The notes below the pieces were generated by a model. That model was not told the origin of the DNA. It did not search any database and saw only the letters and a list, made by a program, of their open reading frames with translations. The position numbers and the translations under genes are program-made. From positions 1-50,197 of the forward strand of contig CAZOYD010000021.1 in NCBI GenBank assembly GCA_964583985.1: DNA of 50,197 nt, written 5' to 3'. Below are positions 1,415 through 39,336 of this stretch, in pieces. Numbering within the stretch: position 1 is the first letter of the stretch; each line of letters starts with the position of its first letter. The DNA comes from an uncultured archaeon (GTDB lineage: Archaea > Asgardarchaeota > Lokiarchaeia > Sigyniarchaeales > SOKP01).

Positions 1415-2494
1415 TTAAAGAGAATCTAAGACCTTATCGACAATTGGTCTAACTTTTTTTAATATATCGAGATGTTCATTCGGGTTTAATTTAACCTTTC
1501 TAGGAAAGTAAGCAAGAAAGACTGAATCATGCAATGTTCCATCTCGAGCTAAATAAGAACCGATATCATAACCTATAACTTTAAAATCATTTTCAATTGC
1601 CATTTTCATTGATCGTACCCCTTCCTCTGTAGCAGGAATTCGCCAATCAATATATCTCCACTTTTTAAACTTTTTAAGAAACATTTTGATAAAGATGTTA
1701 TGCATACATCCTTTAATATGAACAGTACCAAGATTAAAATTTTGTTTAATTTCAATATCATGTGATTTGTAATTAGAATCCTCCATAGTTATAAGGAGAT
1801 CTCTTTTTTTCATGTTTCGGTTATTATTAAGTTGATAATCATAAAAAAACAGGATATCTTCATCGTTCAATAAGTATACTACATTATTCCTTCTTTCCCA
1901 AAAATTGTTCAATGTTCTTGAGTAAAATATGAGAGGAATGGTCTCTCCTTTTACATATGGTTTTTCTTCTTTCTTATTTAAATATAAACGATTCCCTAAA
2001 TTAGCATAGATAGGGTTAAACCCATATGGTTTGGATCCTTGATTTCTCATTGTCATTTGAGTAGATTTAAGACTAGCACGAGCTTCTGCATTTAATCGGA
2101 TAACTTTCTCGAATTGTGGAAATTTTAAAATCTTGAAAATACCCTTGATACCCATTTCGGAAGCCAATCCTTTTCGCTGAAATTTAGTCCTTATAACGAC
2201 TTTAGACATTTGTGCTATATATGGACTGATGATATCTATAACACCTCCCCCACAGAACTCAGGGTTTTCATTATCTAATAACTCACCTATGAACCAGAAA
2301 CTATTTTTCTGTGCAATGGCTTCACTTAATTTACCAACATCATAAACCTTCGCGTCTATATAGCCAAAACCAAAATGTTCAATAAAAGTTTTACTGATTA
2401 ATTCAGCATCACTGGGAATACCTAGTCTTAAGCCATACAGAGAACCATCTCTACCTTTAAATTTAACCAAATATTCCTGCTGTAATAGTTCCAT
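1415..2494 (-). CDS. GNAT-family N-acetyltransferase-like protein
   Basis: Acetyl-CoA-binding motif A (VIRTKFQRKGLA). A possible degenerate second GNAT-like half lies at the C-terminus. Confidence 0.65.
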   Translation of the reverse strand: MELLQQEYLVKFKGRDGSLYGLRLGIPSDAELISKTFIEHFGFGYIDAKVYDVGKLSEAIAQKNSFWFIGELLDNENPEFCGGGVIDIISPYIAQMSKVVIRTKFQRKGLASEMGIKGIFKILKFPQFEKVIRLNAEARASLKSTQMTMRNQGSKPYGFNPIYANLGNRLYLNKKEEKPYVKGETIPLIFYSRTLNNFWERRNNVVYLLNDEDILFFYDYQLNNNRNMKKRDLLITMEDSNYKSHDIEIKQNFNLGTVHIKGCMHNIFIKMFLKKFKKWRYIDWRIPATEEGVRSMKMAIENDFKVIGYDIGSYLARDGTLHDSVFLAYFPRKVKLNPNEHLDILKKVRPIVDKVLDSL

Positions 2495-2681
2495 AAAAAA
2501 ACCTAATGGGTATTTATTAACTAATGTAACAACACTCTTATAAAACTTCTTTTTTTTCCTATGAATAAAACGAAATTCTTAACAATCATGTAAAATGCGA
2601 AAATTTAATTTACATTATTATTCTAGAGGCAAAAATAAAAAAGCATTTTTAGTAAACCTATAAAGAAGAATTATTGATAAT

Positions 2682-2713
2682 AAAAAAGGGGTAAGAATGA
2701 CCCAGATACCCCT
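2682..2713 (-). terminator. Hairpin plus U-tract terminator downstream of the PAP2 gene
   Basis: Minus strand reads AGGGGTA-13 nt-TACCCCT followed by TTTTT, about 10 nt after the stop at 2724. Confidence 0.55.
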
Positions 2714-2723
2714 ATACTGTAAA

Positions 2724-3512
2724 TTATTTGTAAATTATTTTATAAAATAGAATCGAGATAATCGCAGCAAAACCTGATGAAAATAAGACGTCAGATGCAT
2801 AATGCGCACCTATAACTACTCTCGATAAGGCAACAAATAAACCCCATGAAAGAATGAGTATAGGAATAAGAATTTTCGTTAGCACATTGATTTTTCTTCC
2901 TTTTAGTGAAAATATTATGGGAAGAAATATCCATCCCATAGCGGTATGACCTGAAGGGAAACTATCATTACCGGTTATCCCTTGCGGTAAGAACCAAGGC
3001 GTAAAATCAACATATCCTGGGAGTAAATCCCTAAACCTAACCCGACCCCAGAACAGTTTTATGAGCTGAACCAACAATAATGGATTAAGAAGTGCTAAAA
3101 TCGAGATTAATCCGCTTAATTTTCTAAAATCTTTCCAATTTTTCTTCCACGTGATTGCAGTGTATATTGCTAAGCTCAGAACGAGCGTGCTTCCAAGGGT
3201 AATATTCCCTGCATTTAAATGATCTAACACTCCAACTATAATATAGATGATACCTACACCAATTCCAATATAGCTCAGGATTTTTTGCTTTTTTATATTT
3301 TTAATATACCCTCCAAGATAAGTTGCAAAAGCAACTGCTATTAGGCCGTATCCTGGAATTTCGCCATATGCCGCTCCAAATTCGCCCCAAACTGATGTTT
3401 CATCAACAAAAGCAATAGATATTTGCAAATCATAGATTCCAAATAAAAACGCTAATAGGATCCAAACTAAAATTACATATATAAGTAAAAGATTTATTTT
3501 TGAGATTTTCAT
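2724..3512 (-). CDS. PAP2-family membrane phosphatase
   Basis: PAP2 motifs KLFWGRVRF (KxxxxRxRP variant), SFPSGH and SRVVIGAHYASD, with multiple TM helices. Confidence 0.92.
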   Translation of the reverse strand: MKISKINLLLIYVILVWILLAFLFGIYDLQISIAFVDETSVWGEFGAAYGEIPGYGLIAVAFATYLGGYIKNIKKQKILSYIGIGVGIIYIIVGVLDHLNAGNITLGSTLVLSLAIYTAITWKKNWKDFRKLSGLISILALLNPLLLVQLIKLFWGRVRFRDLLPGYVDFTPWFLPQGITGNDSFPSGHTAMGWIFLPIIFSLKGRKINVLTKILIPILILSWGLFVALSRVVIGAHYASDVLFSSGFAAIISILFYKIIYK

Positions 3513-3599
3513 AATTCCAACATTTCAGTTAAAAATTTAAATAATAATATTATCAGTATTTCAGAATAAAAATATAATTGTTCAATATTATTAACAAAA

Positions 3600-4352
3600 T
3601 TAATGGGTAGATTCTTCAAGCTCGGTTCTAATTGATGTTGCAAAATCGGGGTAATCCGTGTATATGGCAGAAATGGTTTTATCTCTAATTCGCATTTGCA
3701 TGATTTTCTTTAGCCGAGATTTAGTATTAAGATCCCACACGTAGCATTCAAGACCATGCTTTAAAATTTCATTTAAATTTTTCATATTTGCTCTAAACGA
3801 TTTGAGATTAATTGCTTTGACATTTACTCCATGTAATTTTTCAAAATTTAGATTGCCTTCATTAACTTTTGATATATCTTCGGGAAGCGTGTAAATCAAT
3901 TTAACTTTATCGTCAAACTTTCTCAATTGTGAAAGAGTAATCATGCTTCTATCAGAGATTTCAATCTTATCCAATAATCCATATTGCTTGGCTGTGTCAA
4001 TAAGGACTTTACCTGCCTTTTTTCCCCGAATATCAAAACTCATGCGGATATTACTTTCATTTAATACTATCTTAAATAACTCATGAGTGGTTGGGATTTT
4101 TCTATCATCAGGAAATTTCAACTGTTGCATCTCATCATAGGTTAAATTAGCAACATCGTATCTCTTGGAATTTAATTTAAAAACATAATCATGAAAACAG
4201 ATTAACACTCCATCTTTCGTGAGTTGCACATCAGTTTCAATTCCAACCTTATAAATTAATGCATTTAGAAAGCAAGGAATAGTATTTTCGATGCATAACC
4301 CCATACCACCTCTATGAGCAAAAATATATGGGGTTTCTCCATGATAATTCAT
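3600..4352 (-). CDS. Glycerophosphodiester phosphodiesterase (GDPD family)
   Basis: AHRGG, ENT, IETDVQLTKDG, HD and terminal TDYP motifs. Confidence 0.93.
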   Translation of the reverse strand: MNYHGETPYIFAHRGGMGLCIENTIPCFLNALIYKVGIETDVQLTKDGVLICFHDYVFKLNSKRYDVANLTYDEMQQLKFPDDRKIPTTHELFKIVLNESNIRMSFDIRGKKAGKVLIDTAKQYGLLDKIEISDRSMITLSQLRKFDDKVKLIYTLPEDISKVNEGNLNFEKLHGVNVKAINLKSFRANMKNLNEILKHGLECYVWDLNTKSRLKKIMQMRIRDKTISAIYTDYPDFATSIRTELEESTH

Positions 4353-4452
4353 GATTCTTGAAATTTATGAGTAGCAAAAATTGAAAAATATAATTTTTAA
4401 AGAAATTTAAATTAACAATATTACATTTAAGAAAAATTGAGATTAGAAAAAC

Positions 4453-5280
4453 ATGAGTGATAATGCAACCGATTCAAATAAAAAAGAATCAAGCAAATTT
4501 AAGGTGTATATAAGAAATCTTTTAGACTTCTCTCATTATGATAAGAAAACAATTTTATATATTATCGTCTTTATCATACTAGTTTTACTTTCGCTTTTCT
4601 TACTTTATTATATCTATTTCGTGGACGGTACAATCCTTTATCGATTTGTGGTTGATTGGTTTGTAAATCCTATCTATTACTTAGGTTTTGTGGGTATTTT
4701 AATTTTTATAATTGTAATGGCTATCCAAGGATTAATAGTTCCAATCCCCTCTGAAATCGTTCTACTTGCAACCGGAATAATATGGGGGGTATTTATTGGG
4801 GGTGTAATGGGAATCATCGGATCCATGGCTGCAGCTTTACTATGTTTCTATATCAGTAAAAAAGGAGGTCGTCCAATCGTTAAAAAGTTTGTAGGAGATA
4901 AAGCAATAGATTTAGCTGATAATTTTATCCATAAATATGGTATGGGAGCAATTATCGTCGCTAGGTTTTTACCCTTTATAGCTTTTGATCCTATAAGCTA
5001 TGCCTCTGGATTGGTTGATATGGACGTTAAAAAATATAGTATTGGTACTCTAATTGGTTCAATCCCTCGAGCCTTTTTTTATTCTTGGTTAGGTTCAATA
5101 TTGGGAATCACTCCTCCTGTTGATTGGGCAACTCTACCTTTAGGCGTCATTGAAGCGCAATCTACTTTATTTAATAATATCTTATTGATAATATTAGTAA
5201 TACTAGTAATCATGTTTGCAGCCTATTATCTGACGAGTAGGTATTATAGTAAAAAAACAAAGATTGAAAAATCTACTTAA
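4453..5280 (+). CDS. TVP38/TMEM64 (VTT/DedA) family membrane protein
   Basis: VPIPSE...G, ARFLPFIAFDPISYASGL and GSIPR motifs are typical of VTT-domain proteins. Confidence 0.9.
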   Translation: MSDNATDSNKKESSKFKVYIRNLLDFSHYDKKTILYIIVFIILVLLSLFLLYYIYFVDGTILYRFVVDWFVNPIYYLGFVGILIFIIVMAIQGLIVPIPSEIVLLATGIIWGVFIGGVMGIIGSMAAALLCFYISKKGGRPIVKKFVGDKAIDLADNFIHKYGMGAIIVARFLPFIAFDPISYASGLVDMDVKKYSIGTLIGSIPRAFFYSWLGSILGITPPVDWATLPLGVIEAQSTLFNNILLIILVILVIMFAAYYLTSRYYSKKTKIEKST

Positions 5281-5400
5281 TCTAGTTAAGAATTTTTTAT
5301 AATATTTTATTATTCAAGTTATTCCATTTTTTACATTTATTAAGATTAATATCATATATGTAAGTATCAATAAATTGAAAATAAATTAAGGGAAAGTACT

Positions 5401-5847
5401 TTGAATTTGATGAAACCACAGATAATTTTAAAGAAAATAAGCAATCTATCGATATTTTTAAATGTAATTACAGCTGCTTTAGGCATTCTCTACTTCATCA
5501 TGCCATCACCTTCTGTATTATATGATATTTTTGGAGTATTCCTGATATGTTCTTGGTCATTTAATCTGTATCTGCTATTTATAATTGATAAATATTTGAA
5601 TAAATCATCAAAAATAGGAAAAAAAATCAATCGCCATTCATATTACTTCATTATTAGCTTTATTCTTAGCATTTTAATGATTGTATTTGGCATTATCTTT
5701 ACTACATTCATCTTAAGTGGCTTTCTTGCAATCTTGGGCTCATTGATGATAATCTCGGGATTTTTCATAATCGTTATCTACGGAATATATTTTTCCTTGT
5801 TAATCTTTTCGAGCAATGAAATTAGGGAGGGATGGAATTTTGACTAA
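5401..5847 (+). CDS. Hypothetical 4-TM membrane protein
   Basis: Four hydrophobic segments. Its stop overlaps the probable TTG start of the downstream hydrolase. Confidence 0.7.
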   Translation: MNLMKPQIILKKISNLSIFLNVITAALGILYFIMPSPSVLYDIFGVFLICSWSFNLYLLFIIDKYLNKSSKIGKKINRHSYYFIISFILSILMIVFGIIFTTFILSGFLAILGSLMIISGFFIIVIYGIYFSLLIFSSNEIREGWNFD

Positions 5848-7141
5848 ATTTAAAAAGATGAATATACTGAGGATAATCTTGATAAATCTCTGTTTCTTGA
5901 CATTTATTGTGGGTATATATTTTACGGCAATCGTGCTTTTTAAAATTCCAACGAGTTTAGCTATAACATTATCGTATTTTCTCAGCCAAATCTCAGGATT
6001 TTTAACCATTCTATATATACTCACCACCATTTTGCTTGTTAAATTGCTATCCACAAGATTAAAAAAAAAACCGTGGATTTCCAGAATTATCTTAATATTT
6101 GGTATTTCTCTTGCGTTTCTTAACTCGCTACCATTATTATCCACGCCCTATTCAATTCAAAATGCCGAAAATGAATTCAACATAGCTTATGGGTCTGATT
6201 GGCGTTCAACAATCCCTAATCAAATAGAATCATACATGTCACCTACTCAATTCAATTTCTATGATTACTTTTTAGGTTTTCCTATCAAAAATTGTAATGT
6301 GGATGTGGATACCTTATACTATGATAATGATGGAATTAGGTTGTATTTCGACACCTATTATCCCATAACGGATGGTTCAAAATTACCGGGGAATAATAGT
6401 GTAATCATCAAGATACATGGCGGAAGTTGGCAATTCGGTGATAAAAGCTTAGGAAATGTATTAGTTCTTAATAAGTATCTCGCAGCTCAAGGATATATTG
6501 TATTTGATATCCAATATGGTCTATTAGATGCAGGAGGATCTTCTTTTATACCTACTCCAGAATACGTGAGAGGAAATGTAACTCTATCAGATATGGTATA
6601 TCAAATTGGAAATTTCACTAAAAGACTTGAAGCAGAATACGCTTCAATTTATAATGCGAACTTGAATTCTGTCTATTTTATGGGAGGAAGTGCTGGAGGA
6701 TATTTAACAGCTTTATGTGGCTTAGGATACAATGATCCTTATTTTGCTGGTAATTTTAGTCACGCATTAACTCTTAAAGGTATTATTCCTATTTACCCTC
6801 CAAATTTTGCCAGTCGTTATTTTGATAATGAACCACTTTCACGTCTCATATCCGGAAATCCGACCTCAAATCCAACTGCTTTTGCTAAATTTACGCCAAG
6901 TAATTTGGTGGATGCCGGTGACCCTCCTGCTTTAATATATCAAGGATTGAGAGACGATTTAGTTTCATTGGATAATGCAGAAGCGATAAAGGCTGCATTA
7001 ATTAGTAATGGCATTGATTGCATGCTCCTCACCTTTCCATTTGCAGCGCACGCAAGCGATCTTATAGTAGGTAATAGCTACTCTCAAGTTTGGGTCTATT
7101 ATTTAGAGCGTTTTCTATATATGTCCCAATTTTCATCTTAA
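5840..7141 (+). CDS. Membrane-anchored alpha/beta hydrolase (HSL-like esterase/lipase)
   Basis: Three N-terminal TM helices, oxyanion motif HGGSW, nucleophile GGSAGG, Asp (DDLV) and His (AHASD). Start probably TTG at 5840, after GGGAGGG; the ORF track gives 5816. Confidence 0.88.
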   Translation: MTKFKKMNILRIILINLCFLTFIVGIYFTAIVLFKIPTSLAITLSYFLSQISGFLTILYILTTILLVKLLSTRLKKKPWISRIILIFGISLAFLNSLPLLSTPYSIQNAENEFNIAYGSDWRSTIPNQIESYMSPTQFNFYDYFLGFPIKNCNVDVDTLYYDNDGIRLYFDTYYPITDGSKLPGNNSVIIKIHGGSWQFGDKSLGNVLVLNKYLAAQGYIVFDIQYGLLDAGGSSFIPTPEYVRGNVTLSDMVYQIGNFTKRLEAEYASIYNANLNSVYFMGGSAGGYLTALCGLGYNDPYFAGNFSHALTLKGIIPIYPPNFASRYFDNEPLSRLISGNPTSNPTAFAKFTPSNLVDAGDPPALIYQGLRDDLVSLDNAEAIKAALISNGIDCMLLTFPFAAHASDLIVGNSYSQVWVYYLERFLYMSQFSS

Positions 7142-7224
7142 TTTTTTTTATTTTATCTCATTTTTCAACTCGTATTACCACGATGATATCATGTTATATT
7201 ATTTATTATAAAAAACAAGATAGT

Positions 7225-7398
7225 ATGGATTTTGACTCTAAAAAGATTCATGGATATGTTAGTTTCAAGGACGAAAAGGATAAATTATCGCTTTTATATG
7301 AGGATCTATCAGATGCTATAATCGAAAACAATATAAAATCAATATGGGAACTTTCAAAAGTAATTACACGATATCACTTTTCTGATGAAAAAGAATAA
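7225..7398 (+). CDS. Small hypothetical protein (57 aa)
   Basis: The 3' part of the 7090-7398 ORF, from ATG 7225 (MDFDSKK...), is charged and helical-looking. The 5' part overlaps the hydrolase stop and a T-tract. Confidence 0.4.
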   Translation: MDFDSKKIHGYVSFKDEKDKLSLLYEDLSDAIIENNIKSIWELSKVITRYHFSDEKE

Positions 7399-7582
7399 AC
7401 TTTAATCCATGAATAGATACGATAATCATTGGATAATAAGCTTTTCAGTTTGAAATAATTGAAAAACTTTTAAATCAACTTAACCTTTAATTCAATTTTA
7501 ATTGATTATGTGGAATTTAAATTTTTTTGCTAAAATATATATTGATGCATCCTACTAGATTGGTAATAAGAATTCTTTTTAG

Positions 7583-7846
7583 GTGAAAACGATCATAAAA
7601 GTTATGGGAGATTTCGAGAATCTTATTGAAGCCGACGTAACTCATGAGTTAGAGTGGTTACGCGAGGAATTTGATTTTTTATTTCAATTTAAAAAAAACC
7701 GCTTATCACAAGCAGATATTGAAATTGCTAACCAAATTATAGATAGTGTTATTAAAAAATATAGTGGTACACTCGACGATAAAATAGTTGATTTATTAAG
7801 CAAAACACTCGAAGGAATAGGAGAACGTTACCCTGGATTAATCTGA
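7583..7846 (+). CDS. Small helical hypothetical protein
   Basis: 87-aa acidic amphipathic ORF immediately upstream of the longin-like gene on the same strand. Confidence 0.7.
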   Translation: MKTIIKVMGDFENLIEADVTHELEWLREEFDFLFQFKKNRLSQADIEIANQIIDSVIKKYSGTLDDKIVDLLSKTLEGIGERYPGLI

Positions 7847-7917
7847 AAGCATTAAAAATTACCTTTACTTTTTTTATTATATTAAATATTCAAATTAATG
7901 GGATAAAATGAATCTCT

Positions 7918-8985
7918 ATGAAGAGTCTACTCTTGAGTCATTGGAATAAATCAACGGGACCAGAATCTATTATCCAATATCCACCGGATAAAAATCCCAT
8001 TACAAAAGACTTATTATTAAAAATATGGGCTCAACATGAGTTAGATAAAGATAATATCATGATTGAACTTCAAGTTTCAGATGAACGCGTAGCATTCAGA
8101 AAATATGTTTCAATTCTTCAAGATTATGAAAATGAAATTTACTTTTTAATTTTAAATTATGAAGAGAAAGAAGAAGTCGTGATATCTCCAGATATATTAG
8201 CGATAATCGGGCGAAATTTATTAGAATTAATGAATACAAATAAAATAACACGAGCTATATCAGAAGCATTCAATACCATCAATAATTATTCAAAACATGA
8301 AAGCGAGAATTTAATTAATTTTTTTCAAGATAAAATTAAATTTACTATATTAGAAATTCTCGAAGAAGGCGTAATCTCAAAGTTAAATTTGACTAATAAA
8401 TTAAGGGAAGAGTATGGATTTTCAACTGTTAATATTGATCTTCTCCTCATTTCATTTCTACAGGAAAATTTAATTGTCAAGAAAATTGTACCTGGCTTAA
8501 AAGAATGCTATTTCTTAATTAAAGATCTTACCTATGCAAGAATTCCTCCTGAATATCTTCCCGAACTTATTCAAGATGAGCAAATTTTAAAAAAATTTCA
8601 ACAAGAACTAATTCAGTTCTTTTCCAATTATGATTATACTCAAGAAATTCAAAATAAATCGCTTACTGGTATCTTAATTGATAAAGAGATTTATAATCTT
8701 ATAAAGGAATTACGACATAGAGTAATCACTGTAAATGAATGCCTAAATTTTTTAAATAATAATGAAGATTTGTTCATGGAGTTATTAGAAAAGAAAATTA
8801 TTTTTGAAGCAAAAGGAAGCGTATATTTATTTTCGGATATTCGCTTTATCAAATTCACACCACTCAATGTTATAAATAACTTAAAAAAAAGATATCGTGA
8901 CCAACTAATCTCTCTTGATCAATATCATGCTCACTTAAAACTGCTTTTAAATAATTCTCTTATCAACAGTTTTACGGTAATATAA
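7918..8985 (+). CDS. Longin/uDENN-like domain protein with two C-terminal winged-helix-like regions (NPRL2-like architecture)
   Basis: The N-terminus LLLSHWNKSTGPESIIQYP matches the hydrophobic-F/W-x4-GP-x-I-x2-(Y/V)P start of uDENN/longin domains. Two HTH-plus-beta-hairpin-like segments follow. Confidence 0.6.
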   Translation: MKSLLLSHWNKSTGPESIIQYPPDKNPITKDLLLKIWAQHELDKDNIMIELQVSDERVAFRKYVSILQDYENEIYFLILNYEEKEEVVISPDILAIIGRNLLELMNTNKITRAISEAFNTINNYSKHESENLINFFQDKIKFTILEILEEGVISKLNLTNKLREEYGFSTVNIDLLLISFLQENLIVKKIVPGLKECYFLIKDLTYARIPPEYLPELIQDEQILKKFQQELIQFFSNYDYTQEIQNKSLTGILIDKEIYNLIKELRHRVITVNECLNFLNNNEDLFMELLEKKIIFEAKGSVYLFSDIRFIKFTPLNVINNLKKRYRDQLISLDQYHAHLKLLLNNSLINSFTVI

Positions 8986-9085
8986 TTATCGATTTAACCT
9001 TGTTCTACTTATTAAATACATAAACATTTTTAAAGCTCAAACTCAATAATTATTAACAATCACTTCAAGTGATGTGATATAATAT

Positions 9086-9853
9086 ATGGCATTAGAACTA
9101 GTAGATTTGTTACAAGGAAGCTTTAGTTTGATTTTTGTGTGCATATCTTTAATCATTGGATTTACAATCCTCTCGAAATATGCACAACATAAATCAAGGC
9201 TTTACATCTTAGTCGGAATCTCTTGGATTGGGATAGCAAATCCTTATTTTCCTGATTCGATAAGTTTTATTGAAGAAATTCTCTTTCAACAACCTTTACC
9301 CGTAGAATGGTATCTAATAATAGGAAATGTGTTCATACCAATTGCTTTGCTTTGTTGGCTAATTGCTTATACGGACATGATCAATAAAAAACGGCAATCC
9401 TTAGTAGTGACTTTGACCATAGTATTTAGCATTTTATTTGAATTAGCGTTCTTTTACTTCTTCTTTACTGATATGAGTCAAATAGGCGTTATTGTCCCTT
9501 CTCGACCCTTCACGGTTGAATTTGGATTATTTATAACAATTTATTTGTTGATTGTCATATTAATACTCCTCATAACAGGAATAAAGTTCGCGCAAAAGTC
9601 GATAAGATCAAAAGAAAAAGATGTAAGACTCAAAGGGAAGCTATTAAGGGCTGCTTTTATAACATTCACTATTGCGGCTATTTTGGATTCGTTACTTGGT
9701 ACTATTTTTGATAACCCAACAGATCCTTTACTAGCAATTATGGTGGTTGTAACTCGATTGTTGTTAATCTCAAGTGCTTTGGAATTCTATGGGGGATTTA
9801 TATTACCCAAATGGATGCATGCTATTTTTTCAAGGCATCCTAACCAAGACTAA
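9086..9853 (+). CDS. Stand-alone 7-TM membrane protein
   Basis: About seven hydrophobic segments and a basic loop (KSIRSKEKDVRLKGK) before TM6. No enzymatic domain. Confidence 0.7.
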   Translation: MALELVDLLQGSFSLIFVCISLIIGFTILSKYAQHKSRLYILVGISWIGIANPYFPDSISFIEEILFQQPLPVEWYLIIGNVFIPIALLCWLIAYTDMINKKRQSLVVTLTIVFSILFELAFFYFFFTDMSQIGVIVPSRPFTVEFGLFITIYLLIVILILLITGIKFAQKSIRSKEKDVRLKGKLLRAAFITFTIAAILDSLLGTIFDNPTDPLLAIMVVVTRLLLISSALEFYGGFILPKWMHAIFSRHPNQD

Positions 9854-9923
9854 TACATTATTTTATTTTTTTTTATTTTATTTTTATTTTGATATAAAAA
9901 GAAGCTTCTTCTACACGAGACAA

Positions 9924-10607
9924 TTACATCTTATCAATAGTATCTTTGTCCGAAAAATCTCCTTCTTTTGGAGCTTTACCATTTCCATAAATTTGATATA
10001 AGACAGTTCTACGAGCACATTCATAAAAACTCCGATAAATATTCTTTTCTTGATCATAAAGAGCACAAGTATCATAAATCATGGGATTCCAATTATAAAG
10101 ATCGTTCTTAGAATCAAACCATAATTTTTCTTTCTCCAAGATAAGTTCATAATCCTCTATTCCAATAGTATCTTCAAGATCCTGTTTATTCAGCATGACT
10201 ATAACGGGTATTTCTTTTATTAACCTGTCTTGAGCCACATTTTTCAATTCTAAAAGGGATTCTACATTATCTTCTAAATATTTCGTTTGCGAGTCAACAA
10301 CCACGATTACAGCATCCGTTCCTTGAAAAATCTTGGATCTTAAAGGAGAAAAACTGGATTGTCCTGCTACAGTAAATACACGATAAAAAATCTTCTTTTG
10401 CTTTGTCGATTGAAACAATCCCCTATCGAAATGTAGCGTTGCACCACTTGCCTTTTCTATTTTTTTAAGATCTTCAACGGGTTCAATATCCTTCTTGGAT
10501 TCCTTTGTGATTTTATAAAGAGTTTCTAAAATTGTTGTCTTTCCTGATCCTGCCATTCCCCAATACACGATTTTTATATACACGCTTCCATCTTTAGTTA
10601 AAACCAC
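9924..10607 (-). CDS. MglA/Arf-like small GTPase
   Basis: KIVYWGMAGSGKTT (G1), ATLHFD (G2), TVAGQ (MglA-type G3 without Asp), NKQD (G4), CAL (G5). GTG start preceded by GGTGA. Confidence 0.85.
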   Translation of the reverse strand: MVLTKDGSVYIKIVYWGMAGSGKTTILETLYKITKESKKDIEPVEDLKKIEKASGATLHFDRGLFQSTKQKKIFYRVFTVAGQSSFSPLRSKIFQGTDAVIVVVDSQTKYLEDNVESLLELKNVAQDRLIKEIPVIVMLNKQDLEDTIGIEDYELILEKEKLWFDSKNDLYNWNPMIYDTCALYDQEKNIYRSFYECARRTVLYQIYGNGKAPKEGDFSDKDTIDKM

Positions 10608-10856
10608 GGATATCTCACCTTAACAAGTTGTATCCTTTTTAGTTAATCTAATACAAATAATAAAATATAAATAATAAGTTTTTCTGAAGTCTACATTATT
10701 ATAAATTGCTCTAAATTAATAATTTGTAATTTTAAAATATTAATTTGAGCTTTAATTTAATTTTTCATGTGAACAGAATTATTTTTTTAACATGAATTCT
10801 GATCGAAGATTAGAACTGAAATTTTTAACTAAATAAAAACCACATACACCACCACC

Positions 10857-11381
10857 ATGGATCAATACTCGGATTCTGACTGGAATTGGGATTTTTTTAA
10901 AGAAATGGTAGAGGATATTGAAGATAATAAGAATATTATTGAATGTATCTCTTGTGGTAAATGCGTGGGCGATTGTCCTGCTGCAAAAATCTCAAATTTT
11001 AACGTCCGAAAAATTATAGCAAAAGTATTACGAGGCAATAAAAGCGTATTAAAAGATTCAGATATTTGGTATTGCTATTTATGTGAAAAATGCAGGCGAT
11101 TATGCCCAAGAGATGGAATCAATATCCCATTACTTATCATAGATTTAAGAAATGAATCCTTTAAAAAAGGATTTGGACCGAAATACAATGATTTAAATAA
11201 ATACGTTGAAATGTCAGAACGTTTTCTTACATCTGGAGTTGTGGTAGAAGAACCCTTAGGAGAACCACTCCCACTTGAAAGAATTAAAGAATTAAACATC
11301 ATTTGTGATTTCGCTCGAATCAACTATGTTTTTAAAGCTAGTAAAGCTAATAAGAATAAAATTAAAAATAAAAAGAGATAA
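10857..11381 (+). CDS. hdrC: Heterodisulfide reductase subunit C-like 2x[4Fe-4S] protein
   Basis: CISCGKCVGDCP and IWYCYLCEKCRRLCP, directly upstream of an HdrB-like gene. Confidence 0.82.
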   Translation: MDQYSDSDWNWDFFKEMVEDIEDNKNIIECISCGKCVGDCPAAKISNFNVRKIIAKVLRGNKSVLKDSDIWYCYLCEKCRRLCPRDGINIPLLIIDLRNESFKKGFGPKYNDLNKYVEMSERFLTSGVVVEEPLGEPLPLERIKELNIICDFARINYVFKASKANKNKIKNKKR

Positions 11382-11390
11382 AAGTTCACC

Positions 11391-12407
11391 ATGGAATTTA
11401 ATCCACTTGCCCTGAATTTGGAGGAAATAGAAAAGAAATACCCAGATTCACCTCTTGATTTCTTTAAAGATAAGAGATTATGCGCATTTAAAGCCTGTCT
11501 AGAAAAATATTTTCCTGGTGTGAGATATGGTATTTTAGATCTTGCTAATGAACTTAACTTAAAATTGAGTGTATGTGAAGGACAGTCTTGTTGCAGTGGT
11601 ACATTTTTTCAACGAAATTTAATAACCAGAGCCCAATTTGCAGCTATTAACGAAAGAAATCTATATGAACTTAATTCTCAATCTGATATAGTTCTGTTTT
11701 CCTGTAATGGTTGCTATAATTCTGTCATGAGAGGACGTGATTTCTTAAAAACCCCTGAAGTTTTTCAAAAAACTGAGAAAATATTGAACGATTTAAAAAT
11801 ACAAATGGGGAAAAAAAAAGAAGACGATCAAAAATATAAGATCCTTGAAAATCCAAGTGTGCGCTTTATTCACGATTTGGATTTTGTTTATTTGATTCGA
11901 AATGAAGTTCTTAATGTATTGAAATATAATTTAAAAGACTTGAAAGTAGCTGTTCATTATGGATGCCACTATCTTAATTTATCCCGTGATAAGCATACGG
12001 TGGAAGGATATTTAAAAGATAAGACTAAATTGGATGAACTTGTCCAACTTTTTGGAGGATCTGCCTTGGATTATCAAGAAAAAGATAGTTGTTGTGGATG
12101 GGGTGCTTCCCAGATTTTAATTAACCCTCGAGAAGCCCTAAAAATTACACACGATAAATTACAAAGCGCTGAAAATGTGGGAGCTGACTTTCTTCTCATG
12201 CCTTGCCCCACGTGTTTATATACATTAAGTAAACCAGAATATAGAGAAAAGATGTATAAGTGGTTTGGAGACAAACTTGAAATACCTACGATTCATCTTA
12301 ATGAACTCATCGCAATTCTATTAGGTTGTGAACAAGAAAGATGTATGTCGTTACGACGAACTACTCCTCGTTTAAAAGAAATCTTTGAAATAATTACCAA
12401 TGATTAA
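11391..12407 (+). CDS. hdrB: Heterodisulfide reductase subunit B-like (two CCG domains)
   Basis: QSCCSG, CNGC, AVHYGCH, SCCG and PCPTC motifs. Confidence 0.85.
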   Translation: MEFNPLALNLEEIEKKYPDSPLDFFKDKRLCAFKACLEKYFPGVRYGILDLANELNLKLSVCEGQSCCSGTFFQRNLITRAQFAAINERNLYELNSQSDIVLFSCNGCYNSVMRGRDFLKTPEVFQKTEKILNDLKIQMGKKKEDDQKYKILENPSVRFIHDLDFVYLIRNEVLNVLKYNLKDLKVAVHYGCHYLNLSRDKHTVEGYLKDKTKLDELVQLFGGSALDYQEKDSCCGWGASQILINPREALKITHDKLQSAENVGADFLLMPCPTCLYTLSKPEYREKMYKWFGDKLEIPTIHLNELIAILLGCEQERCMSLRRTTPRLKEIFEIITND

Positions 12408-12413
12408 AAACAG

Positions 12414-12848
12414 CTACATTTCTTCAATAGCTCTTCTTGGACACGAATCTAAGCAAAGTAGACATCCAATACATTTTTCATATGAGAAATTAAGCCTTAA
12501 TGACTCATCAAAATAGAGGGCATCAGTTGGGCATAATGAAAGACAAGCTCCGCAATCTATACATTTATCATCATCTACAATAACCCTTCCTTTTTTGTTT
12601 ACTACTACGCTATTTTGAGTTAATGCGTCAGTTATCATTTTAATCTTATCCTCGGGTACATCTAGTAATAAATTAACTCCATTTGTTCCAGTTGCAAATT
12701 TTAAAATGTTAAACGTGATATCATATTTTAAGATTTCATTTATGATTTTGGAGTAATCATCAATATCCCTAATGATCCCAAAAGGAAGCATGCAATTAAT
12801 TATAGTAATTTTTACATCAACTCCTCCGAAGATATGATCCCAGTGCAT
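12414..12848 (-). CDS. NIL-domain plus 2x[4Fe-4S] ferredoxin, partner of aspartate-semialdehyde sulfurtransferase (MA1822-like); true start probably near 12810
   Basis: CIDCGACLSLCP and CIGCLLCLDSCP after an ACT/NIL-like N-terminus. Sits directly downstream of the DUF39-CBS gene. Confidence 0.85.
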   Translation of the reverse strand: MHWDHIFGGVDVKITIINCMLPFGIIRDIDDYSKIINEILKYDITFNILKFATGTNGVNLLLDVPEDKIKMITDALTQNSVVVNKKGRVIVDDDKCIDCGACLSLCPTDALYFDESLRLNFSYEKCIGCLLCLDSCPRRAIEEM

Positions 12849-14284
12849 TTTTTCTCATCACTAATAATTGGCAGAGCAGATATATTATTCATCTTCATTC
12901 TCCGCACTGCTACCTCAATCGGTTCATTATCAGATGCCGTAATAACTTTTTTGGTTATGATGTCTCTTATGTGTGTCTTATCCCTTGCTATTGCTTTTGT
13001 AACATCAAAACTAGTCACGATCCCAATCAAATGATTCTCCTTATCAATGATTACAATATGATTTGTATTTTCTTCGATTATTTTTTCTGCCACCACTTTA
13101 ATATCACAATCATCAAAACACGTAATTGCAGGTTTTTTCAAGTCTTTAACGAATTTCAATTCTGAGACTTGTTTCATTGGGTTGTATGTAGTGTTGGTTG
13201 GCAAGTTTTCTGCCGGTGGATTCAAGAAAAATAATCCATCCTCAATCCAAGTTTTTAACTCTTTAGCAATTTTTTTAGCATAAAAAAGTGAAGAAAGTGA
13301 AGATACTTTTACTTCCTTACCATTAATATCTATCTTGCCCGATTTTAATTCTTTATAATTAACTTTTATTAATACGGGACGATTTCTTCTTGGTACGCCA
13401 TAATCTACAACATCAGTTTCGATATTTTCATCCTTTACAGCAGTCTTACGTGCAAGATTTTCATTAAGAATGGGAATGGGTAATCCTACACCCACTGACA
13501 TTGAAGAACCATATTTTTCAAAATTGACTCCTCGCAGATATTCTGGTTTCATTTGCTTGAGATCTCCTTTTAAAAATAGAGTTCCGAATCCATTTTTCGG
13601 ATCATGCTGAGTTCCTTCTCCCATAACATAACCTATGCCTCCTCCGAGAAATATTCTCGTACCTATTCCTATTGTCTCATAATCAGGATCATTACATAAG
13701 GGATTTAAGCACCCTGCTCCTGCATAATGGGCATTTCCTAAATTTGGCAATAGTTTACCCATATAAGTATAGAGTGTTTTATCCGTAGTATTTACCGCAC
13801 ACACGTACTTTTGATATGCATTTCGTGGATTGCATAAAATTGCTTGATTCAGATCATCTATGGTGAAATAAGTATCGATTTCCTCTAAGGGATAGCAATC
13901 AGTCGTATATGAAGTGCCTCTTAGTCTAATGGATTTTCTTGATACGAGATCTTCAATGACGTTTCCCCCTCCATAATCATATGGTTTAATATCTACTGAT
14001 CTTGTCACTCCAATATAACAATCTACAGCAGCATTTCCATGATACGCATGAACTTCATTTAACCAAAGATGTTCTAATTTAATGGGAGGATCTGAATGTC
14101 CAAAATTAAGAAAGGCACCACTTGAACACATTGGACCAAAAGTTCCTGTAGTAACTACATCTATTTCTTTAGCCGCCACCTGTACACCACTATCTTCTAC
14201 AATTTTGATCATTTCTTCAGCGGTGACTACTACAACATCTCCATTTCTTATTTTTTGATTTATTTCGTCGTATGTTTTTGGCAT
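12812..14284 (-). CDS. L-aspartate semialdehyde sulfurtransferase / homocysteine biosynthesis protein (DUF39 plus CBS pair, MA1821-like)
   Basis: KTYDEIN.KI..G.VVV.TAEE, DVVTTGTFGPMCSSG, PRNAYQ and GIGTRIFLGG, plus a C-terminal CBS pair. Confidence 0.92.
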   Translation of the reverse strand: MPKTYDEINQKIRNGDVVVVTAEEMIKIVEDSGVQVAAKEIDVVTTGTFGPMCSSGAFLNFGHSDPPIKLEHLWLNEVHAYHGNAAVDCYIGVTRSVDIKPYDYGGGNVIEDLVSRKSIRLRGTSYTTDCYPLEEIDTYFTIDDLNQAILCNPRNAYQKYVCAVNTTDKTLYTYMGKLLPNLGNAHYAGAGCLNPLCNDPDYETIGIGTRIFLGGGIGYVMGEGTQHDPKNGFGTLFLKGDLKQMKPEYLRGVNFEKYGSSMSVGVGLPIPILNENLARKTAVKDENIETDVVDYGVPRRNRPVLIKVNYKELKSGKIDINGKEVKVSSLSSLFYAKKIAKELKTWIEDGLFFLNPPAENLPTNTTYNPMKQVSELKFVKDLKKPAITCFDDCDIKVVAEKIIEENTNHIVIIDKENHLIGIVTSFDVTKAIARDKTHIRDIITKKVITASDNEPIEVAVRRMKMNNISALPIISDEKKCTGIISSEELM

Positions 14285-26076: not shown

Positions 26077-26604
26077 CTAAAATTTACTTTTAGCTATTAA
26101 AAATTCAATAATTGATTTAAATGCGACATCAACATTGGCTCCAGATTTCGATGAAGTTTTTACATAGTCAACCATTTGAAAAGTTTGTTTAATGTTAAGT
26201 GCGATTTCGTCATCAACAGCAATTAAATCCTCTAAATCTGATTTAGTTCCAACAAGAATGATTGGTAAATTTATGTCGTGCATCCTTACAAGATTTACCC
26301 AAGCCAATATCTCATTAATTAAGGGCATGCGCGTCATATCAAATAAGAGAAGTGCTGCCCTCGCTCCCATGACAAAATTTTCAAGAAGATGTCTAAATCT
26401 TTCTTGTCCACCCAAATCCCATAGTTGTAATGAGCATTTCGTTTCTAAATCATCATATTCAATTTCTTTGATGAAAAAGTCAACACCCACAGTCTCAATC
26501 GTAGATTCGTTAAAGATTCCATCTACATATCTACGGAGAAATGTTGTTTTTCCTGCACCTCCATTTCCGGCAATTAAAATCTTGAAGACAAATTTTTTCG
26601 TCAA
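26077..26604 (-). CDS. Rab-like small GTPase without a C-terminal prenylation motif
   Basis: FKILIAGNGGAGKTT, TVGVDF, LQLWDLGGQERFR, TKSD and TSSK. It ends AKSKF, with no cysteine. Confidence 0.93.
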   Translation of the reverse strand: MTKKFVFKILIAGNGGAGKTTFLRRYVDGIFNESTIETVGVDFFIKEIEYDDLETKCSLQLWDLGGQERFRHLLENFVMGARAALLLFDMTRMPLINEILAWVNLVRMHDINLPIILVGTKSDLEDLIAVDDEIALNIKQTFQMVDYVKTSSKSGANVDVAFKSIIEFLIAKSKF

Positions 26605-37694: not shown

Positions 37695-38405
37695 ATGGGA
37701 TACAGAGAATATGATAGTAATCCATACAGAATTAAAAACGAGCAAGCTCAACCTCAAGAAAGGAGTTCTCCTCGAGCTCCGTTAGATTTTTCAATTCATA
37801 GATTATGTCCTGCTTGTGGGAAGATAATCAAGATTACTCATTCGTTCTGCAAATTTTGTGGAACAAACATTAGCTCAATTTCACCTATTGGTCGTTCTGA
37901 TGAAGTGACTAAAACATTAGCCGATACAGCAATTTCAGATCCAAATCCAGATGTAAGGAAATCAGCAGTAGCATCGATCGGAGAATTTGGTGAAAACGAT
38001 ATTATAGGGCTACTTTCCTATATTCTATTGAATGATCCGGATGAAGCGGTACGAAAAGAGGCAGCTTCGGAATTAGGTAAATTACATCATCCCTATTCTC
38101 TTGATGTGTTAGCAAAAGCTTTAAAGGATAAAAGTGCTTCAGTTCGAAAAGAAGCGATTGAAGGATTGAAAAATATCAAGATGATGACTAAAAAGAGAGA
38201 GTCAGAAGAAGAATATGATAAAGAAAAGGCAGAATCAAATAAAGGTATTCAAGAAGTACCATCTACAAGCCCGCCTAGTGAAATAAAGGAAGAAAAAAAA
38301 GAAAATCTCAATGAAACAAATAAATCAACCGAAACGAGCGAAAATGAACCTTTAGAAGAATTCGACATAGATGAAACTGAAGAAAAGGACTTTTATGAAT
38401 TATAA
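37695..38405 (+). CDS. Zinc-ribbon plus HEAT/PBS-repeat protein with an acidic tail
   Basis: CPACG...CKFCG, three D...VRK.A repeats, and an E/K-rich disordered C-terminus. Confidence 0.85.
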   Translation: MGYREYDSNPYRIKNEQAQPQERSSPRAPLDFSIHRLCPACGKIIKITHSFCKFCGTNISSISPIGRSDEVTKTLADTAISDPNPDVRKSAVASIGEFGENDIIGLLSYILLNDPDEAVRKEAASELGKLHHPYSLDVLAKALKDKSASVRKEAIEGLKNIKMMTKKRESEEEYDKEKAESNKGIQEVPSTSPPSEIKEEKKENLNETNKSTETSENEPLEEFDIDETEEKDFYEL

Positions 38406-38415
38406 AAAGTAAAGC

Positions 38416-39336
38416 TCATTTAACGCTAGGAATTTTTGGTAACTCCCTTCTTCCCTGTGACTTAGAACCACTATTAGAATTGGTAGGTTTGTCTAAATCA
38501 TCTTGTTTTTGCGTCGAGACTTTTTTCTTTAAAACTTCGACAGCTTCAACAATTCCTTTTTTCTCATTTAGATACACCCTCAATTTATAATCATCTAATT
38601 CAATCATATCTTTAGGTAATTTCTCTACTTTTTCCCACTCGATTTCAACAACTTCCTTTCCAAACACTTCAGAGACTTTAGTTGTTGCACCATATAAAGC
38701 GTGACCAAGAATTAAATTTTGTCTTTCATACTCCCCCGGAACATCCTTTTCAAGAACTTTTTCTTTTATCTTTTCTAGATCTTGGGAAGTCAACAATCCT
38801 TGATTTTTAGCTTGCACGGGTGGTTGTGGTAATTTTCGAGAGAATGAGGACATTACAACCTTATCATCGTTATCATTTAATGCTGGAGAAAAATAAGTTT
38901 CATCGTCTGTATTGGCTGTGGAGTTACTCTTTAATGCTCTCTCAGCTTCTAACATCCTATCTCTCTCAATATTTCGAATATAGCGCATATCTGGTAATCT
39001 TTCCGTGACTTCCATCGATTCTAACCTAAATGCATTTAAGAACTCGTGAAGTTCGTCACCTTGGTCAATAGAAACTATTTTACATCGATGATACCTTGAA
39101 TCATCTATTAGCTCTTTTTGCAATTGTTGGGCAATTCGAGAACTTATGAACCTTTTTCTAACAGCAGATTTTGATCCCTTCCATATGAAAATCCTTCTTA
39201 AATCTTCTCTAACAATAATAAAAACTGCTTCTGGATTTAAAAAATTCTGAAGTTCTTCTTGCTTAATCTCCAATTTATTTCGTTCTCCCGAGTCCTCTAA
39301 TTCATATACCCTGAATTCTTCGTAGGCATCCGTCAT
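38416..39336 (-). CDS. Gelsolin/villin-like domain protein with a C-terminal extension
   Basis: LNPEAVFIIV...IFIWKGSKS.VRKRF...A and IDQGDE..EFL are gelsolin-repeat hallmarks. Confidence 0.8.
   Translation of the reverse strand: MTDAYEEFRVYELEDSGERNKLEIKQEELQNFLNPEAVFIIVREDLRRIFIWKGSKSAVRKRFISSRIAQQLQKELIDDSRYHRCKIVSIDQGDELHEFLNAFRLESMEVTERLPDMRYIRNIERDRMLEAERALKSNSTANTDDETYFSPALNDNDDKVVMSSFSRKLPQPPVQAKNQGLLTSQDLEKIKEKVLEKDVPGEYERQNLILGHALYGATTKVSEVFGKEVVEIEWEKVEKLPKDMIELDDYKLRVYLNEKKGIVEAVEVLKKKVSTQKQDDLDKPTNSNSGSKSQGRRELPKIPSVK

Follow-up and report, generated by a model that had tools for sequence, protein, structure and literature searches.

The 355-residue protein encoded in the window, the 50,197-nucleotide stretch of lokiarchaeal DNA analysed here, combines a longin domain with two winged helices, placed after it, as judged from structure models and fold matches. 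It is a member of an Asgard-specific family with a W-[N/D]-x3-G-P...YPP longin motif, acidic winged helices and C-terminal helices, and a link of this family to the membrane is well supported by paralogues that are coupled or fused to giant single-pass surface proteins. The longin gene stands between genes for an 87-residue protein, hereafter p87, and a seven-helix membrane protein (7TM), and this run converges on a gene for an MglA-like small GTPase, hereafter type A. All four open reading frames (ORFs) listed in an earlier note on this DNA are present (Table 1), and all are genuine conserved Asgard genes; chance ORFs are ruled out. We tentatively read the 355-residue protein as a cytoplasmic membrane-protein adaptor and possibly a GTPase platform, with the GTPase encoded next to it as no more than a candidate partner. 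A scan for sigma-70 promoters and terminators, with models ill-suited to an archaeal host, stayed at chance level. The 24 sequencing runs listed for bases 7400-10800 are DNA metagenomes throughout.

Table 1 Genes, domains and motifs of the locus, in window coordinates.
Feature	Position	Strand	Basis or detail
87-aa ORF (p87)	7583-7846	+	ORF listing
355-aa ORF (longin + double winged-helix protein)	7918-8985	+	starts MKSLLLSHWNKSTGPESIIQYP
Longin domain	7918-8292	+	residues 1-125
W9-N10-x3-G14-P15 motif	7942-7962	+	strand 1/strand 2 turn; Y21-P22-P23 after it
Winged helix 1	8305-8544	+	residues 130-209; terminal family-wide D203...R208-P-P motif
Linker helices and winged helix 2	8578-8853	+	residues 221-312; models
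Two C-terminal helices	8863-8952	+	residues 316-345; models
255-aa ORF (seven predicted helices)	9086-9853	+	ORF listing, hydropathy
227-aa ORF (MglA-like small GTPase, type A)	9924-10607	-	Pfam, PDB relatives
N140-K-Q-D143	10179-10190	-	3t12_A alignment
T79-V-A-G-Q83	10359-10373	-	3t12_A alignment
Switch I S54-D61	10425-10448	-	A56 at MglA intrinsic arginine position
P-loop G17-T25 (GMAGSGKTT)	10533-10559	-	3t12_A alignment

A longin domain with two acidic winged helices

In the AlphaFold2 model of the 355-residue protein (pLDDT 73), residues 3-124 run strand-strand-helix-strand-strand-strand-helix-helix, and two helix-helix-helix-wing units come next; modelled separately, residues 126-355 reach a pLDDT of 88 and a pTM of 0.79. 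The five-stranded sheet has the strand order expected of a longin domain, and fold searches match residues 1-128 to solved longin domains and residues 130-205 to winged-helix regulators. The models and fold matches bear out the proposal, made from the letters of the DNA, of an N-terminal longin domain with two winged helices behind it.

Winged helix 1 is closest to PadR, MarR and ArsR-type regulators, and the tandem winged helices find their best matches in PF0095 (2quf_A, E 0.01) and Nse1/Nse3. Both units are acidic (pI 5.0-5.4, with 5.0 for the segment of winged helix 2), and their third helices, EDLFMELLE in the second unit, contain neither Lys nor Arg; the sole basic segment of the protein is residues 316-355, with a pI of 9.8. 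This composition points to protein binding and against DNA binding, and the acidic winged helices of the family are probably protein-binding surfaces. A one-component transcription regulator, in which the alpha/beta domain senses a small molecule and controls DNA binding by the winged helices, would fit the kinship of winged helix 1, the presence of CodY (GAF plus winged helix) and of PAS/GAF domains among Foldseek matches to the N-terminal half, and the asCOG label of the C-terminal part, which the available portion of PMC9834061 (supplementary file 4) gives as 'HTH domain', category K. The acidic units with their Lys- and Arg-free third helices speak against such a regulator, as do the paralogues that are linked, by fusion or coupling, to giant membrane proteins on their cytoplasmic side, and we regard it as highly improbable.

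The family is large and largely unnamed. The protein has 380 relatives at E ≤ 0.001, at least 120 of which, among the matches listed, are 58-100% identical to it, and it is single copy in its own genome (one match at E ≤ 0.01; genome 100% complete). Pfam and NCBIfam hold no family for it, and 37 longin domains of the family gave no Pfam longin-type match at E ≤ 5. Sequence searches of the PDB returned nothing for the whole protein, nothing at E ≤ 10 for a longin-domain profile and one chance-level ribosomal protein (E 0.23) for the orthologue profile. Among 28 distant family members, Pfam finds a TPR in one, sub-threshold HTH models in two and nothing else. Longer fused forms of the 355-residue protein (623-2000 aa) did not turn up in a search that is weak as evidence. 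The Protein Atlas places it in unnamed Asgard clusters only. Cluster members related to it are named just 'hypothetical protein', and 10 clusters yielded no accession from a cultured strain.

The turn between the first two strands carries the signature of the family. G14 and P15 do not vary among 32 orthologues, and the pair is retained in all 67 judged loci except for one row gapped at the motif. The available part of PMC12290439 describes a GP motif, in the loop ahead of strand 2, that is specific to longins of the GAP type (FLCN, SMCR8, C9orf72 and NPRL2), and G14-P15 is such a motif. The residues cited there for C9orf72, W33-D34 and G38-P39, have the same W-[N/D]-x3-G-P spacing as the family, judged by published residue numbers and not by alignment. 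The likeness has bounds: unlike GAP-type longins, paralogues of the 355-residue protein have G-T or G-A where its orthologues have G-P. As opposed to C9orf72-SMCR8, FLCN-FNIP and the Asgard FLCN/SMCR8-type longins, as far as the accessible accounts of these describe them, the 355-residue protein has winged helices after the longin domain and no DENN domain, and, in contrast to the C9orf72-SMCR8 and FLCN-FNIP GAP complexes, it has no evident arginine finger.

Likeness to NPRL2 in architecture only

The earlier note had likened the protein to NPRL2, and this likeness holds for architecture only. NPRL2 and NPRL3 (yeast Npr2/Npr3; GATOR1/SEACIT) consist of a longin domain and then at least two winged helix-turn-helix repeats, in the accessible description by Levine et al. 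(PMC3747258), and the 355-residue protein has the same layout, as well as the GP motif before strand 2 that PMC12290439, in its available part, reports for such longins. The Foldseek comparison proposed with that claim came out in its favour, in that GATOR1 chains are the only three whole-chain matches at E ≤ 0.001 (E 1.0e-4 to 4.2e-4).

What did not stand is membership by sequence and the longin arginine. Pfam NPR2 (PF06218) does not match the protein at E ≤ 1; among 300 Asgard genomes it exceeds its cut-off in none and reaches E ≤ 0.001 in three, in no case through the 355-residue gene. Alignments of the family longin domains contain no arginine conserved throughout; R112, the lone conserved longin arginine within the orthologues, sits at a helical position and does not persist in the sister family. 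An arginine finger of the NPRL2 type is thus not evident. For the C-terminal half, the matches are to generic winged helices of the ArsR/PadR type, and NPRL2 is absent from the best 50 rows of two fold searches with that half, a result with which a relationship is still possible. Lokiarchaeal longin, Lst4 and FNIP/FLCN domains score equal to or above NPRL2 against the protein. Unlike NPRL2, it has no paralogous longin partner in the manner of NPRL3 in its own complete genome (E ≤ 0.01), and the GTPase next to it is MglA-like, not Rag-like. A true NPRL2 counterpart, supplying an arginine finger and acting as GAP for the neighbouring GTPase downstream of a 7TM sensor, would make the locus a primordial GATOR1-like module. 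The layout, the Foldseek ranking, the GP motif and a GTPase devoid of an intrinsic arginine all agree with this picture, but set against the missing arginine, NPR2 signal and NPRL3, the equal or better scores of other longins, the generic winged-helix pair and the type of GTPase, it is very unlikely indeed.

Such proteins are not new to the literature. For Lokiarchaeia, "NPRL2-like longin + HTH" proteins have been catalogued (PMC9834061, supplementary file 4), and the entries in the part of the catalogue available to us agree with the 355-residue protein in layout, in their Lokiarchaeia hosts and in lacking a Pfam family; they include a TPR-fused variant similar to one member of the present family (P0203). 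In that part of the catalogue, p87, the 7TM gene and the MglA-like neighbour are not described. We found no literature that treats the Asgard winged-helix and longin proteins and a GTPase together. The evidence that the 355-residue protein, the 7TM protein and the GTPase act jointly is weak.

Paralogues coupled to giant membrane proteins

The tie to the membrane comes from paralogues. Among 22 paralogues at 16 distant loci, 14 either adjoin an ORF of 1176 aa or more or are separated from it by one small gene, and their stop and start codons often overlap. Four further ones abut an ORF that is cut by the end of the locus. All 13 giants checked have a single helix, located 79-212 residues before the C-terminus, and in one locus (L140) the longin-winged-helix module itself (E 2.4e-32) lies C-terminal of the transmembrane helix within one giant ORF, in a fused frame that is open over 2678 aa.

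These arrangements suggest that members of the family are cytoplasmic adaptors that dock onto membrane proteins. The partner of the paralogues would be a giant surface protein that crosses the membrane once and has 79-212 residues in its cytoplasmic tail; in one genome, this partner and the adaptor form a single polypeptide. As other longin and roadblock domains suggest by analogy, the longin face is probably a platform for a small GTPase, be it as GAP, GEF or effector, and the adjacent MglA-like GTPase would be the leading candidate client, not an obligatory one.

An MglA-like GTPase without the intrinsic arginine

The 227-residue protein had been called an MglA-like GTPase, and its best solved relatives are indeed MglA (3t12_A, E 9.8e-15, aligned over residues 9-160), with a Pfam Arf match at E 3.9e-15. 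The P-loop, the N-K-x-D motif and the MglA-type T-x-x-G-Q in place of D-x-x-G-Q are all present. Switch I differs: A56 aligns with the arginine in the MglA stretch ERTLFFD, and this position is Ala in 75-95% of 57 sequences (the window copy and 56 orthologues), the set over which motif conservation was computed. The switch I arginine of MglA is catalytic according to the available text of PMC10933270, and a GTPase that has Ala in its place may need a helper.

As with MglA/MglB (3t12 and others), a longin/roadblock-type gene lies close to an MglA-type GTPase gene. Unlike that pair, the GTPase has alanine for the intrinsic arginine, the protein encoded next to it has a longin domain plus winged helices and is not a Roadblock dimer, and the genes are convergent and not co-transcribed. 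Pfam finds no Robl_LC7 (MglB-type) domain in p87, the 355-residue protein or the 255-residue protein. On another contig of the same genome, a Robl_LC7 protein adjoins paralogous MglA-like GTPases, and the type B GTPase, the closest paralogue of type A, is likewise convergent with a run of genes, here headed by one for a Roadblock/LC7 protein. Profile-profile comparison shows no relation between the 355-residue orthologue profile and a 339-residue Roadblock protein, or between p87 and the small ORF adjoining the type B GTPase.

Gene order around the longin gene

The gene order is conserved within one family-level lineage, and the adjacency of longin and GTPase is confined to that lineage. The sister family has orthologues of both, but they are adjacent in 0 of 7 genomes; the 367-residue and 330-residue neighbours in the sister family show no relation to the 355-residue orthologue profile in profile-profile comparison. 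The type A GTPase occurs in 57 of 80 orthologous loci. It is convergent and adjacent in 53 of the 67 judged loci and absent from the other 14, with a median gap to the 7TM gene of 39 bases. In 52 of these 67 loci, a homologous seven-helix gene occupies the slot between longin and GTPase; it is absent from 15. In 45 loci it is co-oriented with the longin gene, whereas in 7 the slot holds a 22%-identical 7TM homologue co-oriented with the GTPase gene, a switch of strand partner more typical of functionally tied genes.

The whole block is collinear across the family, in the order VTT/DedA, small ORF, p87, longin, 7TM, GTPase, Fer4 and CCG, and takes in unrelated metabolic genes. With VTT in 71 and Fer4/CCG in 65 of 80 loci, the GTPase is retained no better than unrelated neighbours, and the GTPase and 7TM genes are missing more often than any other member of the block. 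Co-transcription of the longin and GTPase genes is impossible, since they lie on opposite strands, and the genes are not tightly spaced (median gaps of 150 and 118 bases). In loci without the adjacent GTPase, the motif HW[NS]..GP..YPP is unchanged, and in four of five such genomes searched only the type B paralogue is left; the fifth search found no relative of the GTPase. Of 20 loci around distant relatives of the 355-residue protein, 5 have a GTPase within 4 kb, about what chance would give (an expected fraction of ~0.19, from 81 GTPase matches in 3.8 Mb). The linkage of longin and GTPase genes is real, but it is weak evidence for joint function.

These patterns bear directly on a plausible, if somewhat doubtful, alternative, in which the genes are neighbours by inherited order only and the longin protein and p87 work without the adjacent GTPase. 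The longin protein would then serve another of the ~80 small GTPases or none at all, for example as a pure scaffold, and Roadblock-type proteins encoded elsewhere would regulate the MglA-like GTPase. The metabolic genes in the block, the 14 loci without the GTPase but with the longin motif intact, the sister family and the lack of GTPase enrichment near distant relatives all favour it, as does the Roadblock/LC7 protein beside MglA-like paralogues; small GTPase genes of the cultured lokiarchaeon MK-D1, too, generally lie outside roadblock/longin operons in the accessible account of Tran et al. (PMC10933270). The strand-switching 7TM slot, a GTPase that has lost MglA's own arginine and a longin domain with the GP motif reported for GAP-type longins (PMC12290439, available part) argue for a functional tie instead. 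Complex prediction with the 355-residue protein, p87, GTP and the GTPase scored 0.00 in two runs and carries no weight either way.

The earlier note had joined receptor, GAP and GTPase in one module. The membrane side of that proposal gains from the paralogues, whereas the link to the GTPase is weak, being limited to one lineage and a collinear block, missing in 14 of 67 loci and lacking in the sister family. In its fullest form, a seven-helix sensor would recruit the p87/longin adaptor, the arginine-free W-N...G-P face would set the state of the arginine-less MglA-type GTPase, and the adaptor family would serve giant surface receptors likewise; this whole chain is unlikely. If true, such a membrane-to-GTPase relay would be of a kind so far undescribed and an archaeal precursor of longin GAP complexes that are coupled to receptors.

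The more solid gain is the tie of one 'NPRL2-like' family to membrane proteins via gene coupling and fusion. Asgard genomes encode dozens of small GTPases as well as longin/roadblock proteins, the pairings of which are rarely known according to the available part of PMC10933270, and this locus offers one concrete, testable adaptor-GTPase pairing. Should the adaptor regulate the arginine-less GTPase, prokaryotic MglA-type switches would be linked to eukaryote-type longin regulators; should it not, the protein is an ordinary member of a catalogued Asgard class.

p87 and the seven-helix protein

The gene for p87 is the constant upstream partner of the longin gene, a firmer link than that of the GTPase: among orthologous loci with enough upstream DNA, 74 of 76 carry it. 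The protein is small and acidic (pI 4.7), with a conserved core ELxWLxEEFxxLF and a YPEFF-like C-terminal end, and W25, E29, F30 and F34 are invariant in an alignment of sequences about 35% identical to the window copy. Translation may in fact begin at the ATG at 7604. Pfam and NCBIfam hold no family for it. In the orthologue group, this helical-looking protein would be the constant partner of the adaptor, and the likely membrane partner would be the seven-helix protein encoded just downstream of the longin gene.

That 255-residue protein had been described as a stand-alone 7TM protein, and hydropathy with the positive-inside rule likewise predicts seven helices, one of them (~residues 38-56) under the scan threshold, with the N-terminus out, the C-terminus in and the largest basic cytoplasmic loop at residues 167-185. 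It matches nothing in Pfam at E ≤ 1 except a chance-level Dsc3_C and has no NCBIfam family. Its 358 relatives, at ~70% identity, are all from Asgard archaea. In the Protein Atlas, the nearest cluster bears the automatic name 'Histidine kinase N-terminal 7TM region'; the HisKA_7TM model (PF16927) does not match the protein, and the name, a feature match, serves as a lead only.

Fold and relatives of the longin protein

The four ORFs claimed by the earlier note are present exactly as described, in a window with a G+C content of ~30%.

ORFs of the longin locus
Gene product	Position	Strand	Basis
p87	7583-7846	+	ORF call
355-aa longin protein	7918-8985	+	ORF call
255-aa membrane protein (7TM)	9086-9853	+	ORF call
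227-aa GTPase	9924-10607	-	ORF call

The 355-aa protein has no sequence match in Pfam, NCBIfam or the PDB, and 380 relatives at E ≤ 0.001. The genomes behind these relatives are Asgard metagenome assemblies with titles such as Promethearchaeota and Lokiarchaeota. The 120 listed relatives are 58–100% identical, 257–388 aa long (mostly 350–362) and nearly all named ‘hypothetical protein’ at source; in a search of 1.84 billion proteins, a profile of 32 orthologues reaches 179 representative clusters (E ≤ 0.001). The AlphaFold2 model (pLDDT 73, pTM 0.42) places a longin topology at residues 3–124, with two winged-helix units after it and a pair of helices at the C-terminus. Both winged-helix units are acidic, and Lys and Arg are absent from the third helix of each, so protein binding is more likely than DNA binding; a role as a transcription factor is hardly likely. 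Within the longin domain, W9, N10, T13, G14, P15, Y21, P22 and P23 are invariant among orthologues; across the wider family of longin and winged-helix proteins, conservation is limited to W, G, P22, H40 and several hydrophobic positions, and the alignment contains no conserved arginine in this domain.

The protein had been called NPRL2-like. That likeness holds for the layout of a longin domain and two winged helices, NPRL2 and NPRL3 being described as an N-terminal longin domain with at least two winged HTH repeats (Levine et al., PMC3747258), and weakens beyond it. A whole-chain Foldseek search with the model returned only three matches at E ≤ 0.001, all chains of 363–370 residues in GATOR1 entries; we assign them to NPRL2 by chain length, as only entry titles are given. 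Pfam NPR2 does not match the 355-aa protein and exceeds its cut-off in 0 of 300 sampled Asgard genomes. The genome studied here encodes a single family member and therefore no NPRL3-like paralogue as partner. According to PMC12290439, which also discusses Asgard longins with a GP motif, this motif ahead of strand 2 is specific to GAP-type longins; the paper gives W33-D34 and G38-P39 for C9orf72. By its residue numbers rather than an alignment, the W-[N/D]-x3-G-P spacing is equal in C9orf72 and the 355-aa protein. On the same comparison, both are without an arginine finger, and it is highly unlikely that the 355-aa protein is a true arginine-finger GAP. NPRL2-like longin proteins, some fused to signalling domains, are reported in Asgard archaea by Liu et al. 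(bioRxiv 10.1101/2020.10.19.343400); outside the supplements of that preprint, the literature searched holds no paper that describes the 355-aa protein in company with p87, the 7TM gene or its MglA-like neighbour.

GTPase, 7TM protein and p87

The best solved relatives of the GTPase are MglA proteins (E 9.8e-15), in agreement with its earlier description as MglA-like. TVPGQ of MglA aligns with TVAGQ of the GTPase, and the arginine of ERTLFFD, described as the intrinsic finger of MglA (PMC10933270), aligns with A56; both features are kept across 57 aligned sequences (the window copy and 56 orthologues). For the 255-aa protein, seven helices are predicted, with basic loops on one side, and Pfam gives no match; the Atlas matches it to a cluster whose automatic name refers to the histidine-kinase 7TM region, which is a lead only. 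The acidic p87 evolves fast, with ~35% identity between orthologues whose longin proteins share ~60%.

Most genomes of the family encode two close GTPase paralogues, type A beside the longin gene and type B elsewhere. At L134 (contig C19 of the genome studied here, 1929-5681), and also at L139, type B, the closest paralogue of the window GTPase, converges on a run that begins with a Roadblock/LC7 protein of 339 aa and continues with an unknown of 298 aa and an MglA-like GTPase of 202 aa. A 78–88-aa ORF lies upstream of type B, and the arrangement mirrors the window locus; sequence comparison relates the Roadblock/LC7 protein in no way to the longin protein. On two contigs of the genome studied here, C19:46882-48665 and C45:2325-4110 carry GTPase pairs that are almost identical and score almost alike; they may stem from recent duplication or from two strains sharing a bin (contamination 5.25%).

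Gene order across orthologous loci

Across 80 orthologous loci from different species, compared by tblastn and an iterated profile search on ORFs, the block order is VTT, small ORF, p87, longin, 7TM, GTPase (reverse), Fer4, CCG. The flanking genes are ordinary by Pfam, with a VTT/DedA membrane protein and an esterase upstream and a 4Fe-4S protein and a CCG-domain protein downstream. The small ORF between the esterase/VTT genes and p87 (~57 aa; 7225-7398, the C-terminal part of a 7090-7398 ORF) is without family assignment and is kept at the same position in 71 of 80 loci. Downstream, 10857-14284 begins with the 4Fe-4S and CCG genes as an HdrC/HdrB-like pair, which belongs to the collinear block in 65 of 80 loci. 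Next, on the opposite strand, come genes for a protein with a ferredoxin domain and for an HcyBio+CBS protein of homocysteine biosynthesis.

p87 is found in 74 of the 76 loci with enough upstream DNA. The interval from longin to Fer4 was judged in 67 loci, the DNA of the other 13 ending too soon downstream of the longin gene. It holds the 7TM gene (+ strand) and the GTPase in 35, a 22%-identical 7TM homologue on the GTPase’s strand together with the GTPase in 7, the GTPase only in 11, the 7TM only in 10 (one of them distant) and neither in 4; the GTPase is thus adjacent in 53 of 67 loci. Where it is missing, only type B is left in 4 of 5 genomes searched, and neither type was found in the fifth.

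The longin and GTPase genes may simply be neighbours that do not work together, an alternative we regard as somewhat doubtful, yet one to which several observations point. The entire block is collinear, the HW[NS]..GP..YPP motif is unaltered in loci without the GTPase, and in a sister family of the same order the longin (E 1e-55 to 1e-68) and GTPase (1e-54 to 1e-85) orthologues are unlinked in 7 of 7 genomes. On the other side stand the adjacency kept within one lineage, the strand-switching 7TM gene and the way the two proteins complement each other, the longin motif being of GAP type but lacking an arginine and the GTPase being of MglA type but lacking the MglA arginine.

In two of the seven sister-family genomes, the longin orthologue lies two genes from a 571-aa Roc/Arf-type GTPase, near PIG-L and actin genes. 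The same-strand run (L111 3695-11144; L113 1685-9513) comprises this GTPase, unknowns of 302–330 and 362–367 aa, longin, a 193-aa unknown, a PIG-L deacetylase and an actin homologue.

Membrane proteins beside the wider family

A sample of 20 distant loci contains 26 family members, of which 4 are orthologues from the sister family and 22 are paralogues. Among the paralogues, fourteen adjoin, or stand one small gene from, an ORF of 1176–1601 aa with Laminin_G_3, CarboxypepD_reg, DUF2341 or Big-type domains, frequently with stop/start codon overlap; four others border on an ORF truncated where the locus ends, and the remaining four comprise two ambiguous cases and two with different neighbours. 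All 13 giants checked have a single transmembrane helix 79–212 residues from the C-terminus, and 10 of them carry a hydrophobic segment at the N-terminus as well. At L140 (8590-11001, -), the longin and winged-helix module lies inside a giant ORF, on the C-terminal (cytoplasmic) side of the transmembrane helix (E 2.4e-32; residues 442–792 of the sequenced part, in a frame listed as 2678 aa open). Two further open frames of ~2650–2670 aa carry the module.

Five of the 20 loci have a GTPase within 4 kb. The genome studied here has 81 Arf-model matches in 3.8 Mb, so ~0.19 GTPase is expected per 9-kb span; GTPases are thus found near members of the wider family no more often than by chance, again as expected if the two genes are neighbours only. 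The receptor/GAP/GTPase module proposed earlier is weakly supported, given the collinear block and the unlinked sister family. The genes, the folds and the family’s link to membrane proteins are well supported; our tentative reading is that the 355-aa protein is a membrane-coupled adaptor that may serve the adjacent GTPase.

In small-genome Asgard families (L119, L120 and L124), a paralogue stands in a conserved run. Unknowns of 416 aa (535 aa in L124) and 257 aa and a JAB/MPN protease come before the paralogue, and an unknown of 140 aa and a giant surface protein come after it. Elsewhere in the window, eukaryote-like genes encode a Ras/Rab-like GTPase (26077-26604, -), a HEAT-repeat protein (37695-38405, +) and a gelsolin-repeat protein (38416-39336, -).
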